Of a stretch of DNA of 64,000 nucleotides, positions 47,279 to 53,287 are shown piece after piece. Position 1 is the first letter of the stretch. Each line of letters starts with the position of its first letter. The notes under the pieces are model-generated. The model ran no database searches and was not told the DNA's origin. It saw only the letters and a program-made list of their open reading frames with translations. Source of the stretch: an uncultured Rickettsiales bacterium (GTDB taxonomy: Bacteria > Pseudomonadota > Alphaproteobacteria > Rickettsiales > CAZNNM01); the NCBI GenBank assembly GCA_964574415.1, contig CAZNNM010000005.1:130132-194131 (forward strand), written 5' to 3'. A program made the translations under genes and the position numbers.

Positions 47279-47493
47279 TGTCATCCCGGACTTGGCAGCT
47301 CGATGAAATCAAGAGCGGGATCCACTGTTATGGTGGCGTGATTGCTAACAATCTCGTTGGAAGCACCAGTCTTGGTGGATTCCGGATCAAGTCCGGAATG
47401 ACAATGAAAATACTGTCATTCGCCAACTTGATCAGCATCGCTGTAGACTATTCGTCATTGCGAAGCCACATAGTGGCCATGGCAATCCAGGGG
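47279..47493. repeat. three adjacent nested-hairpin repeat units
   Basis: 47279-47403 is a full unit that aligns with 58730-58836 but has an 18-nt insertion in the left hairpin. 47414-47440 is degenerate. 47453-47493 is a GTCATTGCGAAGCC...GGCAATCCAGG arm. Confidence 0.85.
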
Positions 47494-47523
47494 CGAGACT
47501 CTCCACCTCACGACCGCTCGCAA

Positions 47524-48810
47524 TTAAGCCGTCAGCTTCTTCACCACTGCATCCAGTGACAATTCTTCTTTCTCACCGGTCTTGCGATTCTTCAACTCCA
47601 CAATCCCATTCGCCGCCCCACGCGGACCGATGGCTGCGTGCCATGGCGTGCCAATCAAATCTTGTGTCGCAAACTTGCTACCTGCACTCTCGCGAGTATC
47701 ATCGTAAAGCACTTCCACACCCGCTTTTTGCAGTTTGGTATAAAGCTCTTCACACAGTTTCTCGCATTCTTCTGCGCCACTCTTCAAATTCAGCACGGCC
47801 ACTTTAAATGGCGCGACGGATTCCGGCCAAATAATCCCATCCTCATCATGATGCGCTTCGATAATCGCACCCACTAGGCGGGATACACCGATACCATAAG
47901 CACCCATCTCCACCGTCACTTGCTTGCCTTCGCTATCCAGCACGGTCGCGCCTAATGCTTCGGAATATTTCGTGCCGAAATAGAAAACATGCCCAACCTC
48001 AATACCGCGCTTCTTACGCAAACGTTCCGCAGGCACTGGACAGTTAGCAGGATCATGCAATTCATCCGCCGCCGCATAGAGTGAATGCAGCTTGTCGATA
48101 TCGACATGCGGTGCATCCATCAGCTCTTCAAAGGCTGCATCGTAATACACATCGCTCTCGCCCGTCTCAGCAATAATCTGGAATTCATGGCTCAAATTCC
48201 CACCAATCGGGCCGGTTTCAGCACGTACTGGAATTGCTGTTAAGCCCATACGTTTGAAGGTATTGAGGTATGCCTCATACATAATATCGTAGGATTTCTT
48301 AGCACCCTCATAATCCAAGTCAAAACTATACGCATCCTTCATCAAAAACTCGCGACCACGCATCACACCGAAACGCGGACGGATTTCGTCGCGGAACTTC
48401 CATTGGATATGGTAAAGATTCATTGGCAGATTCTTGTAGCTTTTGACGTTCTTGCGGAACAGATCGGTGATCACTTCCTCATTGGTCGGGCCAAAGAGCA
48501 ACTCATGTTCATGGCGGTCTTCGATGCGGAGCATCTCTTTGCCATAAGCATCATAACGGCCAGATTCTTTCCATAATTCAGCCGGCTGAATGCATGGCAT
48601 CAACAGCTCAATCGCGCCGGCTTTGTTCATCTCTTCACGCACAATCTGCTCAATATTGCGCAGCACTTTTAAGCCCAATGGCAGCCAGTTATACAGGCCA
48701 GAGCTTAACTGGCGCACCAAGCCTGCACGGAGCATTAAACGATGTGAAGCAATCGTAGCTTCAGAAGGAGTTTCTTTTAAGATCGGCAAAAAATAACGCG
48801 ATAGACGCAT
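47524..48810 (-). CDS. proS: prolyl-tRNA synthetase (short form lacking the insertion editing domain)
   Basis: [18 protein letters not shown]..., class II motifs [17 protein letters not shown] and [10 protein letters not shown]. 428 aa. Confidence 0.93.
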
Positions 48811-48994: not shown

Positions 48995-50311
48995 CTACGG
49001 CAACAACGGCGACCAAGCAGGATCGGATGCCTCCAGTGGGGTCACCACTTCGCGCTCGTTATATCCTGTTAAGTCCACCGAGAAAATCTTATACGCACCT
49101 TGTGTACCGCGGCCACCTTGGAATTGGCGTGTGAACATGATCACGCGGCCGTTTGGCGACCAGGTTGGCGCTTCATCCATATAGCTGGTGGTCAAAATCC
49201 GCTCACCGCTACCATCCGGGCGCATCACACCAATATGGAACTGGCCTTTCAGCATTTTGGTAAACGCAATCAAATCCCCACGTGGCGACCATACCGGCGT
49301 ACCATAACGCCCTTCGCCAAAACTGATACGCGCTTGGTTGCTACCATCGGCATTCATCGTATAAAGCTGCTGCGCACCTGCACGGTCAGAGTTGAAGACG
49401 ATGCGTTGACCATCAGGCGAGAAAGATGGCGATGTATCAATCGCTGGGTTATTGGTCAATTGGCGTTGTGAGCGGCTGCGCAGATCCATAGTATAGATTT
49501 CCGTATTACCATTACTGGCCACCGACATCGCCACTTTGCTACCATCATGCGAGAAGCGCGGCGCGAAGCTCATGCCTTGGAAATTACCAATCACACGGTC
49601 AGCACCAGTTTCGATATTACGCAAATGGACGCTTGGTACTTTATCGCGGAAGGAGAGGTAAATAATATCTTGGCTGGTTGGAGAGAAACGTGGGCTTAAC
49701 ACCAACGCCGAACCATCCGTGAGGAATTTATGATTAGCACCATCCTGATCCATAATCGCTAAACGGCGCACACGGTTTTTACCCACACCACTTTCTGCCA
49801 CATAGACAACACGCGTATCAAAATACCCGCTCTCACCGGTCAAACGGGTATAAATCGCATCCGCAATTTTATGCGCAATACGGCGCCAACCGCTGGTACT
49901 GCTGTTAAAGATCGAACCCGCCACTTGCTGCTCCAAATACACATCCCACAGGCGGAACGTCACTTTCAGCTGATTGCCTTGCTGCTCAATCATCCCAGTC
50001 ACCAAACCAGACGCATTAATCTGCCGCCAGCTGGCAAATTGTGGAGTAGCATTGCCTGACGTAATATTCTCAATAAACGCACTCTTATTGATCGGGCGGA
50101 ACAGACCTGAACGCTCCAAATCTCCCTCAATCACACGGGTGATATTCTGCGCAATTTGTGGATCGCCACCTTGGCTACTAAAATCCACAATCGCAATCGG
50201 CATAGGGTTGGCGTTACCTTGGGTAACGTCGATTTTTAATACCGCAAATGCTGGCTGGGAAAAAGCCACCACACCAAGCATACACACCATTAAACGTAGT
50301 AATTTCATCAT
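48995..50311 (-). CDS. tolB: Tol-Pal system beta-propeller protein TolB
   Basis: Signal peptide, then an N-terminal domain and repeated SPxFSPDG / PxWSP propeller blades. Confidence 0.92.
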   Translation of the reverse strand: MMKLLRLMVCMLGVVAFSQPAFAVLKIDVTQGNANPMPIAIVDFSSQGGDPQIAQNITRVIEGDLERSGLFRPINKSAFIENITSGNATPQFASWRQINASGLVTGMIEQQGNQLKVTFRLWDVYLEQQVAGSIFNSSTSGWRRIAHKIADAIYTRLTGESGYFDTRVVYVAESGVGKNRVRRLAIMDQDGANHKFLTDGSALVLSPRFSPTSQDIIYLSFRDKVPSVHLRNIETGADRVIGNFQGMSFAPRFSHDGSKVAMSVASNGNTEIYTMDLRSRSQRQLTNNPAIDTSPSFSPDGQRIVFNSDRAGAQQLYTMNADGSNQARISFGEGRYGTPVWSPRGDLIAFTKMLKGQFHIGVMRPDGSGERILTTSYMDEAPTWSPNGRVIMFTRQFQGGRGTQGAYKIFSVDLTGYNEREVVTPLEASDPAWSPLLP

Positions 50312-50383
50312 ATCTTCCTTTAATATTTTCGTTTATCCACCGTATAATTTCATCATACGGGAATAAAAAATATAAAAACTATA

Positions 50384-50794
50384 CTAATTTAATTCTTTTA
50401 CCATAAACGTAATCTCCATTTCCTGCCAACTACTGTATTTTTCTACTGGCGGCCTACGCTTTAGAGGACTACATATTTTAAAAACCCGCAACACACTATC
50501 AGCAAATGCCTTATAGCATGAGCTATTTTGATAGTGCAGGTTGTCATGCAGTTTGGCGCTAATAACATGACCCGTTTTTTCAAGTTGTATCGTTACTGTT
50601 GCTGAAAGCCCTTCCAAAATTGCACATTTATTTCTAGGCGGCGTCCAACAAATAAAGAACTCTTGTCGGACAGCTTCCGCTTCACTAACTGTCAATGGTA
50701 CAACCGATTTTTGAGCTGCCCCTACCTCTGCAAACGCCACTTGCGAAAGCATTACCCCAAACACATACATTACTACTTGTAATAGCTTAACCAT
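50384..50794 (-). CDS. secreted stand-alone paralog of the TolA C-terminal domain
   Basis: Signal peptide MVKLLQVVMYVFGVMLSQVAFA with an AAGGAAAAG Shine-Dalgarno. ...FFICWTPP...VTIQLEKTGHVISAKL...YKAFADSVLRVFKICSPLKRRPPVEKYSSWQEMEITF aligns with the TolA C-terminus encoded at 50984-51270. Confidence 0.65.
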   Translation of the reverse strand: MVKLLQVVMYVFGVMLSQVAFAEVGAAQKSVVPLTVSEAEAVRQEFFICWTPPRNKCAILEGLSATVTIQLEKTGHVISAKLHDNLHYQNSSCYKAFADSVLRVFKICSPLKRRPPVEKYSSWQEMEITFMVKELN

Positions 50795-50983
50795 CTTTTC
50801 CTTTTTTGTGCATACTATTCCCGCAGAAACAGCAGCCCCAAATATCTTAGTGAACCCAAGGAGCGCCATATTTTTGCTTATTTACGCCCCCACCTCTGCT
50901 GGGATAACAATCTTTATTTGGCACTGTTAACTTATATATCACTATTCTACACATTATCTCAATGAATAAAAAAGCTTATAAAA

Positions 50984-51919
50984 CTATAGCTCCGGCCTAA
51001 AATCTATCTGAATTTCATGCCAGCCATTTGCACCTTCATATTTTTCTGGAGGCGGCAAATATTTAAGTGGGCTACAGACTTTCACTGCACGTAATGCGCT
51101 AGCAACAAATGCCGCATAGAATGGATCATTCCCAAAACTCGCCACAGGAGCCGCCCTAACATTAATGACATCACCCTGTTTTGTCAGCTGCACCGTAATA
51201 GGGACATACATCTGGCTCACATCACGCCCACCCGCATTATACGACCAACAACTCTTAAATTGACCTGCAATCGCATCTTTCTCCGTTGTACTCAGCGGAA
51301 TACCCGCATCATAATTTTGATCCGATTTATTGCTTTGAACAGCTTGATTCTTGTCCTCTAGCTTTTCTTCTTTAGCCTGCTGTTCTGCTTTTTCACTAAG
51401 ATCGCGCTCTAACGCTTCCCAGGCATCCTCAGCAGAGGCATCCTTTTTTGGCTCAGGCTTCTTAGGCTCTACCTTTTTAGGCTCTGGTTTTGGAGGTTGA
51501 GGCTTAGGCGGTTCAGGCTTCTTAGGTTCCGGCTTAGGCTCCTCTTTTTTCGGCTCTGGCTTTTTCTCTTCTACTTTCTCTACCACATCTTCTTTTGGCT
51601 TCGGAGGAGGCGGAGGCGGAGTTTCGTCTTTTATTTCGGGTTTTTTAGGCTCCGGTTTTGGAGGTTGAGGTTTAGGAGGCTCTGGTTTCTTTGGTTCAGG
51701 CTTTTTAGGTTCTGGTTTCTGAGGTGCAGGCTTAGGTGTAGGCTTCTGGGTCACAGTCGCAGGCTTAACATTTGTAACCGATGATACCGGCAACAACTCC
51801 ACCGTCACAATATTCTCCGGCGGTAATTCCTCAAAGAAGGATGGTATGCCGAAATAGCTTATGATAAGCACGGCTAAATGCAGGAGCACTGAATAAATAA
51901 TGCCGCGCTTTAAGGTCAC
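50984..51919 (-). CDS. tolA: Tol-Pal system protein TolA
   Basis: N-terminal TM segment, long Pro/Lys/Glu-rich domain II (KPEPKKPEPPKPQPPKPEPKK occurs twice), C-terminal TolA domain III. Lies downstream of tolQR. Confidence 0.8.
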   Translation of the reverse strand: MTLKRGIIYSVLLHLAVLIISYFGIPSFFEELPPENIVTVELLPVSSVTNVKPATVTQKPTPKPAPQKPEPKKPEPKKPEPPKPQPPKPEPKKPEIKDETPPPPPPKPKEDVVEKVEEKKPEPKKEEPKPEPKKPEPPKPQPPKPEPKKVEPKKPEPKKDASAEDAWEALERDLSEKAEQQAKEEKLEDKNQAVQSNKSDQNYDAGIPLSTTEKDAIAGQFKSCWSYNAGGRDVSQMYVPITVQLTKQGDVINVRAAPVASFGNDPFYAAFVASALRAVKVCSPLKYLPPPEKYEGANGWHEIQIDFRPEL

Positions 51920-52362
51920 TTGCGTGGACCTCCGGTGCCGTCAGTAATAAGAGCTACTTTAGTAAAGCCAGCAGCATTAATCGCAGCCACCACATTCATC
52001 ACGGCACCATAATCTACATTCTTATCGCCACGAATCAGAATACGTGTATCCGGCTTTTCGCCAATAATCGCCTGTAACTTAGCAGGCAAGTCTACCACGC
52101 GGATTTGGGTGGTTTGCAGATACACACTTCCATCGGATTTCACACTCACCGAAAGCGGCTCTTCCTGATTCGGCACAGGGTTGGCCGAAGTTTCCGGCAA
52201 ATCCACATTCACTCCCGTCACCATCATTGGAGATGCCACCATGAAGATGATCAGCAATACAAGCATCACGTCCACCATTGGCGTAACGTTAATCTCGCTA
52301 TTCAGCGCATGGCGCTTCTGACGGCCGCCATTGCGTGAGGATGGAGCTAGTTTTGCACCCAT
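51916..52362 (-). CDS. tolR: Tol-Pal system protein TolR (ExbD family)
   Basis: SEINVTPMVDVMLVLLIIFMV ... ILIRGDKNVDYGAVMNVVAAINAAGF. Confidence 0.88.
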   Translation of the reverse strand: MGAKLAPSSRNGGRQKRHALNSEINVTPMVDVMLVLLIIFMVASPMMVTGVNVDLPETSANPVPNQEEPLSVSVKSDGSVYLQTTQIRVVDLPAKLQAIIGEKPDTRILIRGDKNVDYGAVMNVVAAINAAGFTKVALITDGTGGPRK

Positions 52363-52379
52363 ACTTATATCCTTTACTC

Positions 52380-52477
52380 CGTCATCGCGAGCGTAGCGTG
52401 GCGATCCAGGGGTAACAGTCTCTGTCTTTCAAAGCTGCCCTGGATTGCCACGGCCATTTTATGGCCTCGCAATGACA
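52380..52477. repeat. MITE-like nested-hairpin repeat inside the tolQ-tolR intercistronic spacer
   Basis: cgtcatcgcgagcgtagcgtggcgatccagg ... ccctggattgccacggccattttatggcctcgcaatgac. It occupies 98 of the 127 nt between tolQ and tolR. Confidence 0.9.
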
Positions 52478-52489
52478 TAGGTTTAAACA

Positions 52490-53287
52490 TTAGAACACCT
52501 TACGTTGCTGTTGACGTTGTGGCTGCGCTTGTTGCACACTTGAACCATCGAGTTCGCGGGAAATCAGCGCATCAAGCTCGGTAGAGAAATCATCCACACG
52601 AGTAGTAAAGCGGTTCACATCGGAAGAGAACATGTTATAGAAAATCATCGCAGGAATCGCTGCAAACAGACCGATCGCGGTTGCAAATAGCGCTTCGGCA
52701 ATACCAGGAGCTACAACAGCCAATGTGGTGTTTTTGGATAAAGCGATCGACTGGAAGCTGTTCATAATTCCCCACACCGTACCAAACAGCCCAACGAAAG
52801 GCGCAGATGAACCCACCGTCGCCAAGAAGGAGAGATTCTTCTCCATCCCATCCACCGCACGGTTACGCGCTACTTGCATGGTTTGGAAGATACGGTCACG
52901 GATACCAGCACGCAAATGGCTATCCGCCGGCACGAACTCATCCGCACCACGGCGTGTCCATTCTTTCATCGCAGCCACAAACACCATCGCCATCGGATGA
53001 TCCGCACGGTTGCGGATGCGCTCATAGAGTTCTTCAAGCAGACGGCCAGACCAGAAGGTTTTCTCAAACCGGTCGCTGCGGTAACGGATACTACGGAAAA
53101 GGCGGATTTTATCAAAAATAATTGCCCAGGAAATCACCGAGGCCAGCAATAATAAGAGCATCACGACCTTGACCACAATATCAGCTTGCGCAAACAGGCC
53201 GAACATGGATAAATCATGGCTGGCGACACTACCGGCAAGAGCTGTCGCATCAACGGCGGTGGTAGGGGCACTGGTAGCAGCAGTCAT
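52490..53287 (-). CDS. tolQ: Tol-Pal system protein TolQ (MotA/ExbB family)
   Basis: ADIVVKVVMLLLLLASVISWAIIFDK ... GSSAPFVGLFGTVWGIMNSF ... VAPGIAEALFATAIGL. Confidence 0.9.
   Translation of the reverse strand: MTAATSAPTTAVDATALAGSVASHDLSMFGLFAQADIVVKVVMLLLLLASVISWAIIFDKIRLFRSIRYRSDRFEKTFWSGRLLEELYERIRNRADHPMAMVFVAAMKEWTRRGADEFVPADSHLRAGIRDRIFQTMQVARNRAVDGMEKNLSFLATVGSSAPFVGLFGTVWGIMNSFQSIALSKNTTLAVVAPGIAEALFATAIGLFAAIPAMIFYNMFSSDVNRFTTRVDDFSTELDALISRELDGSSVQQAQPQRQQQRKVF

Follow-up and report, generated by a model that had tools for sequence, protein, structure and literature searches.

A stand-alone TolA domain III with a predicted signal peptide, encoded between tolA and tolB in an uncultured Rickettsiales bacterium: an apparent tolB-tolA chimera

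We analysed a 64-kb stretch of contig CAZNNM010000005.1 from an uncultured Rickettsiales bacterium (the window), in which a small gene (50384..50794; 136 aa and a TAG stop) lies between tolA and tolB, on the minus strand like all genes of the tol cluster. TolA domain III (TolAIII) is the contact point of the proton-motive-force-driven Tol machine with TolB, and the entry point for colicins and filamentous phages. The small gene encodes a paralog of domain III of the adjacent TolA behind a signal peptide, and it looks like a chimera of the tolB 5' end and the tolA 3' end, left by a tandem duplication across the junction of the two genes. In our preferred reading, to which we assign a probability of roughly 0.55, the product is a lineage-specific chimera that would act as an uncoupled periplasmic competitor for the ligands of TolAIII, most simply the TolB N-terminus. 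A stand-alone secreted TolAIII paralog had been proposed at this position in the initial annotation, and pairwise alignment, a hidden Markov model (HMM) of TolA sequences only, AlphaFold and Foldseek all agree with it; the TolB-derived N-terminus, i.e. the duplication-junction chimera, had been missed.

The range first given for the gene, 50384-50869, is a real open reading frame (ORF) of the minus strand, but it covers the longest possible ORF, of 161 aa, and the 136-aa protein begins inside it, at the ATG at 50794. This ATG is preceded by AAAGGAAAAG, with the Shine-Dalgarno motif AAAGGAA 4 nt upstream; it aligns with the start of tolB, and public gene calls begin there too. The upstream in-frame ATG at 50869 lacks a Shine-Dalgarno motif, and public gene calls do not start at it. 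A start there would add 25 hydrophobic residues (MALLGFTKIFGAAVSAGIVCTKKEK; 50795-50869) and may give a longer membrane-tethered isoform. The N-terminus of the 136-aa protein, MVKLLQVVMYVFGVMLSQVAFA followed by EV, consists of a basic n-region followed by a hydrophobic core of 16 residues and an AxA motif (cleavage, as read from the sequence, between AFA and E), and thus has the form of a Sec-type signal peptide, as originally noted. The signal peptide (residues 1-22; 50729..50794) is separated by approximately nine residues from the TolAIII-like globular domain (residues 32-136; 50387..50701). The protein contains neither the uncleaved TolQR-coupling anchor nor the long domain II of TolA. Of its four cysteines, C49 and C108 are the family pair, and C57 and C93 are extra. 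The predicted mature protein is 12.9 kDa, with an isoelectric point (pI) of 8.4 vs 6.8 for the TolA domain. The exact protein sequence occurs once in public data.

Concerning base composition, the gene has a GC content of 0.406 and a GC content at third codon positions (GC3) of 0.35, compared with a GC of 0.467 for tolA and 0.503 for tolB, and with an average of 0.488 (standard deviation 0.033) for 32 long ORFs of the window. The gene is therefore AT-richer than its neighbours, as had been reported, but modestly so. The domain III part of tolA (the last 348 nt, 50984-51331) itself has a GC of 0.451 and a GC3 of 0.371; the AT-richness largely mirrors this parental segment, and a foreign origin is not needed. 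A foreign or mobile origin was considered and rejected, based on the low GC shared with the tolA 3' end and on the lack of any match to plasmid records, PHROGs, PADLOC models or viral folds.

The alignment of the mature protein with the C-terminal domain of the adjacent TolA, on which the first assignment was based, is upheld by BLASTP: residues 32-130 align with TolA residues 207-307 with 36 identities over 102 positions (35%; E value 2e-19). The landmarks listed for this alignment (CW, QLxKxGxVI, YxAFxxSxLRxxKxCSPLKxxPPxEKY and WxExxIxF) are all present; the first two letters originally placed before the second of them were misquoted. An HMM was built from 108 genuine TolA C-terminal domains, leaving out both window proteins and all stand-alone proteins; it scores the paralog at 87.9 bits (E value 4e-27) vs 90.7 bits for its own TolA. 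A profile of the family matches the Pseudomonas aeruginosa TolAIII structures 1LR0 and 6S3W with an E value of 4e-6. The general models are not reached at their cut-offs: TIGR02794 (tolA_full) gives 17.2 bits against a cut-off of 59.45 (E value 0.0024, profile positions 281-360 only), PF13103 (TonB_2) gives 13.9 bits against a gathering threshold of 22 (E value 0.06) and TIGR01352 (tonB_Cterm) gives 20.1 bits against 27.1 (E value 6e-4). Judged from these alignments, the homology to the TonB_2 and tonB_Cterm models is real, though sub-threshold.

The predicted structure agrees with this assignment. The AlphaFold2 model, computed from a 128-sequence alignment, has a mean predicted local distance difference test score (pLDDT) of 85, with values over 90 for residues 31-135; it contains two helices (36-49 and 92-107) and three strands (64-71, 77-82 and 125-131). 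In a Foldseek search of the PDB, ranks 1-5 are the TolAIII structures 1LR0, 6S3W, 2X9A, 3QDP and 1TOL, and 4G7X is found at rank 9. Nine of the ten best matches are solved TolA domain III structures; the exception, at rank 6, is the TonB domain of Helicobacter pylori. The match to 1LR0 has an E value of 7e-4 and a template modelling (TM) score of 0.58, and that to 6S3W a TM score of 0.57. Looking at the species order, TolAIII of P. aeruginosa comes first, followed by those of E. coli and Vibrio cholerae, while the other TonB and the HasB C-terminal domains are placed lower. The modelled domain is thus predicted to have the alpha/beta fold of TolAIII, with a three-stranded sheet packed on helices and superposable on the solved domains.

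The chimeric nature of the gene is seen at its 5' end. The signal peptide of the paralog (MVKLLQVVMYVFGVM-LSQVAFA) and that of the adjacent TolB (MMKLLRLMVCMLGVVAFSQPAFA; first 23 codons of tolB, 50243-50311, minus strand, the parental segment of the paralog 5' part) are identical at 12 of 23 positions (52%), with a BLOSUM62 local score of 46. Against the TolB signal peptides of 152 other organisms the paralog scores 15.8 on average (standard deviation 4.0) and 30 at most, which places the score with its own TolB at a z of about 7; the window TolB signal peptide reaches 35 at most against those same sequences. Among the 153 sequences the two are reciprocal best matches, and none of 20000 shuffles attains a score of 46. 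The local alignment at the DNA level starts at the Shine-Dalgarno motif AAAGGAA, which both genes share, and spans the part coding for the signal peptide; its score is attained by 1 of 2000 shuffles. The 5' part of the gene therefore resembles the 5' end of the downstream gene, its 3' part resembles the 3' end of the upstream gene, and it lies between the two on the same strand. This is the arrangement that a duplication beginning in tolA and ending in tolB necessarily leaves, namely a tolB-5'::tolA-3' junction ORF between an intact tolA and an intact tolB.

A more recent case of what we take to be the same event is found on a metagenome contig (L088), with the gene order tolR-tolA-X-tolB. The protein encoded by X (P0097) shares 82% identity with the C-terminal 127 residues of the TolA beside it. 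Over its first 34 residues (MLARFRLLALSFMAVLVAPIIAHAQMSIDTTKGN) it matches the N-terminus of TolB, which is encoded downstream (MLARFRLLALSLLAILAAPMLANAQLKIDITKGN). The duplication is still visible in the DNA as a tandem direct repeat of approximately 600 nt (983-1588 vs 1591-2189; 84-93% identity, 93% in the spacer). Two further contigs (L175 and L176) carry a TolA (P0157) 80% identical to P0097, and both of these independent assemblies end 36 nt past the tolA stop, where a repeat like the one in L088 may perhaps have broken the assembly. In the inserted genes of two other loci, L010 and L036, a TolB-derived N-terminus was sought and not found (z of 0.4 and -1.3, respectively); the stand-alone copies are not all of tolB-chimera origin, or some have lost the signal.

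Among 1.84 billion representative proteins, an exhaustive HMMER search retrieved 661 at E values up to 1e-3; word-indexed searches gave almost nothing beyond the query. Most of the matches are TolA proteins of 250-330 aa, matched through their C-terminus. The nearest among the matches listed is P0003, a 291-aa TolA of another organism (43% identity), and the paralog's own TolA ranks approximately 47th. The 90%-identity cluster of the paralog has one member, and on the sequences searched the paralog is a species-level orphan. Approximately 14 of the 150 matches listed are short or multi-domain proteins in which a signal peptide or lipobox leads directly into a TolAIII-like domain. Single or short forms are P0038, P0059, P0067, P0068, P0077, P0097, P0110 and P0119. 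The tandem forms comprise P0005, P0096, P0025 and P0053, lipoproteins or secreted proteins that carry two or three TolAIII repeats, and P0141, a secreted protein of 1312 aa with two copies; P0063 is a lipoprotein in which TolAIII is fused to an ExbD/TolR-like periplasmic domain. Stand-alone TolAIII genes are located immediately 3' of tolA for P0059 (L085), P0097 (L088) and P0119 (L091/L092), and also in L036; those of P0038, P0005, P0077, P0110 and P0068 lie away from tolA (contigs L082, L083, L087, L089 and L093). Genes for stand-alone TolAIII proteins with predicted export thus follow tolA in at least three other lineages. The source records name the stand-alone proteins 'hypothetical protein' or 'TonB C-terminal domain-containing protein'. 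In precomputed tables, PF27683 (UCP034077) is assigned to several of them and to some TolA proteins, and there is no Pfam match for the window protein. The literature searched yielded nothing relevant on natural free TolAIII, UCP034077 or TolA-like secreted proteins.

The position of the gene is unusual. A TolB-anchored survey covered 80 loci of species-representative genomes plus another 80 on metagenome contigs; in 150 of these alphaproteobacterial loci, domain III of a tolA was detectable upstream. Among the 150, the median length of the tolA-tolB spacer is 37.5 nt, and in 146 the spacer is shorter than 200 nt; in only four is it 200 nt or longer, so the claim that the gene interrupts the usual tolA-tolB adjacency is well founded. 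Based on the HMM, L036 alone among the surveyed loci has a second TolAIII domain. The best TolB identities among the loci fetched are 62-64%, meaning that the source organism is without a close sequenced relative, and the window gene was found in none of its closest relatives. In the nearest of them (L095, TolB 64% identical), 1558 nt separate tolA and tolB and contain two unrelated orphan ORFs (L095:632-2179) of 231 aa, with a signal-like N-terminus, and 254 aa; these show no Pfam match below an E value of 0.03 (two weak sub-threshold matches) and no TolAIII similarity. In this clade, genes may have been gained repeatedly at the tolA-tolB junction. In Thalassospira sp. HJ (L010:5198-5611; P0153, UF64_10825), the 836-nt tolA-tolB gap is occupied by an ORF of 137 aa (123 aa in the public call) with a hydrophobic N-terminus and the motifs CL..P, DPDGSV and CSPV at TolAIII-like spacing. 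Its assignment to TolAIII was not confirmed, with no HMM match and an hhalign probability of 40% over 43 columns; it may be a very diverged example of such an insertion.

Concerning the maintenance of these genes, the young L088 pair is the informative one. Between TolA and the chimera (Nei-Gojobori, 129 codons), the synonymous divergence (dS) is 0.456 and the nonsynonymous divergence (dN) 0.089, a dN/dS of 0.19, compared with about 1.07 for the 34 TolB-derived codons. Since a pairwise ratio of approximately 0.5 is expected under drift of the new copy, the value of 0.19 indicates purifying selection in this young analogue. Between the window paralog and its TolA, synonymous changes have reached saturation; the ORF has stayed intact at an amino-acid divergence of 65%. 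Of 20 family positions conserved in at least 80% of sequences, the paralog keeps 12 and its own TolA 17; those kept in the paralog include C49, C108, W50, G75, R103, P110, P116, Y120, W123 and F130. Identity to TolB in the signal peptide (52%) is higher than identity to TolA in the domain (35%), the opposite order to the young L088 pair, which suggests that the domain has changed faster or that the 5' end underwent gene conversion.

The preferred reading can be laid out as follows. A tandem duplication reaching from the last part of tolA into the first part of tolB would have produced a junction ORF in which the ribosome-binding site and Sec signal peptide of tolB were joined to the end of the TolA linker and domain III. 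The product would be exported and cleaved after AFA, giving a soluble periplasmic TolAIII domain which, having neither membrane anchor nor domain II, could not be energised by TolQR. It would offer the beta-strand-augmentation surface of TolAIII and bind the N-terminal TolA box of TolB, thereby titrating or buffering the contact of TolA with TolB by which Pal is mobilised. In the known complex, mature TolB is bound through its first 12 residues, which augment strand beta3 of TolAIII as a parallel strand, with a dissociation constant of 40-200 uM (PMC7391070). The corresponding elements here are the TolB N-terminal peptide VLKIDVTQGNAN and the paralog strand beta3, WQEMEITF. Tuning these TolB contacts is one suggested way of regulating vesiculation (PMC7391070). 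The E. coli precedent named in the initial annotation is also present in the literature, as a tool: PMC6195910, citing Levengood-Freyermuth 1993 and Wan & Baneyx 1998, describes TolAIII fused to a signal sequence as a means of making E. coli leaky. In the model of P0097, the protein's own TolA box is not docked, and the N-terminal 54 residues are predicted to be disordered. Homology, position, chimeric origin and recurrence are read here from sequences, and the fold from a model; expression, export, binding and phenotype of the paralog are what the preferred reading would add to them.

Several results weigh against this reading. Concerning the origin, the duplication at the window is deduced from protein-level similarity and from the analogy with L088. 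The DNA upstream of the Shine-Dalgarno motif is at chance level (886 of 2000 shuffles), with spacers of 189 vs 72 nt, and DNA-level repeats between the two halves of the locus are undetectable; the unalignable spacers and missing repeats imply an event much older than that of L088. The best database match of the paralog is the TolA of another organism (P0003), not its own. A neighbour-joining tree of 166 domains supports neither of two placements, as sister of its own TolA (8 of 200 bootstraps) or of P0003 (2 of 200); in this tree the L036 pair alone is supported (189 of 200), which for that stand-alone domain points to local duplication. Concerning the function, no orthologue was found in 5.8 billion protein clusters, so selection on the paralog itself is not measurable. 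Eight of the 20 conserved positions are changed, including Q45E, G55N, A101V, A104V and the FDP motif after strand beta3, which is FMV; together with the two extra cysteines, these changes mean that the ligand may no longer be TolB. Lastly, overproduced free TolAIII harms E. coli, and a plain competitor would therefore need low or regulated expression.

The same data can be read in three other ways. If the free domain is a decoy, it would catch bacteriocins or epitopes like those of filamentous-phage g3p before they reach the energised TolA, giving tolerance with Tol-Pal intact. Colicin A and the N1 domain of g3p do bind TolAIII by strand augmentation, N1 at the edge used by TolB and colicin A at the opposite one (PMC7391070), and the weak native TolA-TolB affinity would allow stronger ligands to be sequestered selectively. 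The gene is also species-specific, and its domain has diverged faster than its signal peptide, the reverse of L088, as would fit an arms race or relaxed constraint. Such divergence can be explained otherwise, however; no TolA-dependent toxin or inovirus is known for the organism or was seen near the gene, and none of the PADLOC defence models, PHROGs, plasmid records and viral folds searched matches the paralog. We consider a decoy function unlikely.

A functionless by-product, i.e. a junction ORF that is still open and is kept because deletion within an essential operon is risky, appears quite unlikely to us. It would account for a singleton without orthologue, with the lowest GC of the cluster and 8 of 20 conserved positions lost, and L088 illustrates that any duplication over two same-strand genes yields a junction ORF automatically. 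At 65% divergence, however, an unconstrained ORF of 136 codons and 40% GC should have acquired stops or frameshifts; by our own estimate, random sequence of such composition stays open with a probability of approximately 1e-4. The fold-determining residues, the AxA site and the Shine-Dalgarno motif are all retained, the structure model is confident, the L088 analogue is under purifying selection and exported TolAIII proteins are retained in many lineages. The changes after beta3 (FDP to FMV), Q45E, G55N, the two extra cysteines and the shifted pI could alternatively mark a TolAIII scaffold that has gained a new partner other than TolB, e.g. a periplasmic or outer-membrane protein with an exposed beta-strand. 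Other stand-alone TolAIII proteins are likewise encoded far from tol genes, and the domain is also found fused to an ExbD-like domain or in tandem repeats. Yet the gene is still within the tol cluster, no candidate partner was identified and the strand-augmentation edge WQEMEITF is near the family consensus, so we regard a new partner as very unlikely.

Looking beyond the single locus, we tentatively propose, as a possibility rather than an expectation, that Alphaproteobacteria repeatedly make a natural periplasmic TolAIII dominant-negative by duplication at the tolA-tolB junction, that some keep it as a Tol-Pal regulator or an immunity decoy, and that the window gene is an older, diverged functional example. 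If true, a regulator would tune outer-membrane vesiculation or constriction, and a decoy would counter toxins and phages that parasitise TolA. In the literature searched, free periplasmic TolAIII is known only as a laboratory tool that disables the Tol system; a natural exported TolAIII between tolA and tolB offers a direct way to ask whether Tol-Pal is tuned by competition or protected by a decoy. It is also a clean case of bacterial new-gene birth, in which one duplication spanning two adjacent genes at once gives an ORF that has a ribosome site and an export signal and encodes a folded domain; L088 (young) and the window gene (old) document two stages of it. The domain family was already known; what is new is the natural form at the tolA-tolB junction, with its tolB-derived signal peptide and Shine-Dalgarno motif, a mode of origin that had gone unremarked and is seen more than once in Alphaproteobacteria.

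The cluster begins with tolQ (52490..53287; 265 aa), an ORF identified by position and by the MotA/ExbB family inferred from the synteny of related loci, followed by tolR (51916..52362; 148 aa), whose public gene call carries the ExbD family domain PF02472. The tolA ORF (50984..51919; 311 aa) encodes a membrane anchor with the S..H motif, a domain II rich in Pro, Lys and Glu, and domain III (residues 207-311; 50987..51301; BLASTP and domain HMM match); it matches NCBIfam tolA_full with an E value of 7.8e-10, under the model cut-off, and its nearest relatives are TolA proteins of approximately 290 aa, e.g. P0003. Domain II (51434-51733) is built from 15-nt periodic repeats coding for PEPKK-type units and is proline-rich, not helical; a spurious ORF on the opposite strand mirrors the coding one there. 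The tolA-paralog spacer (50795..50983; 189 nt) is AT-rich and contains the Shine-Dalgarno core AAGGA (50799-50803) and one sigma-70-like site (50953-50982; TTTATA-18-GATAAT). The paralog-tolB spacer (50312..50383; 72 nt) also contains AAGGA, and is followed by tolB (48995..50311; 438 aa, or 437 from the second ATG) and then proS. Neither spacer contains a terminator-like hairpin, and the paralog lies within the tolQRA-tolB transcription unit, so it is probably co-produced with the Tol proteins; transcription would have to pass through it to reach tolB, unless tolB has a promoter of its own. No homologues of pal or cpoB are found in the entire 64-kb window, which makes the tol-pal system a split one, an arrangement catalogued in PMC12204202. 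A palindromic element of approximately 100 nt (GTCATTGCGAGG...GCTCGCGATGAC) has at least two good copies in the window (52381-52476 and 807-903) and a partial one (47454-47550). It resembles intergenic repeats of the repetitive extragenic palindrome (REP) or miniature inverted-repeat transposable element (MITE) kind, and the copy in the tolQ-tolR spacer folds with -55.7 kcal/mol (z -6.95). Scanning the window for tRNAs and for Rfam families (at gathering thresholds) gave no matches.

Compared with known systems, the window protein shares its predicted fold with TolA domain III (1LR0, 6S3W, 1TOL, 2X9A, 3QDP and 4G7X) and the CW...CSPLK...Y..W...F signature with alphaproteobacterial TolA C-terminal domains, and like them is encoded in the tol cluster; it differs from them, as read from its sequence, in having no anchor or domain II, a cleavable signal peptide, two extra cysteines and an altered tail after beta3. 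The stand-alone 'TonB C-terminal domain-containing' proteins of 120-165 aa (e.g. WP_203192346.1 of Xanthobacter dioxanivorans) also consist of a signal peptide and a single TolAIII-like domain with the same conserved residues, but many of them are encoded away from tol genes, whereas the window protein is encoded inside the cluster, has an N-terminus derived from the neighbouring tolB and has no precomputed PF27683 match. The engineered periplasmic TolAIII of E. coli, as described in PMC6195910, likewise combines a Sec signal peptide with TolAIII, and is soluble in the periplasm and uncoupled from TolQR; that construct is laboratory-made, is overexpressed from a plasmid and causes leakiness, whereas the window gene is natural, chromosomal and located within an operon. 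The closest counterpart is P0097 of L088, which also lies between tolA and tolB and joins a TolB-derived signal peptide to a TolA-derived domain III. With 82% identity to its own TolA, P0097 is young, and it retains nine mature TolB residues (the TolA box) and 23 residues of the TolA linker, whereas the window protein is far more diverged (35%) and has no recognisable TolA box.

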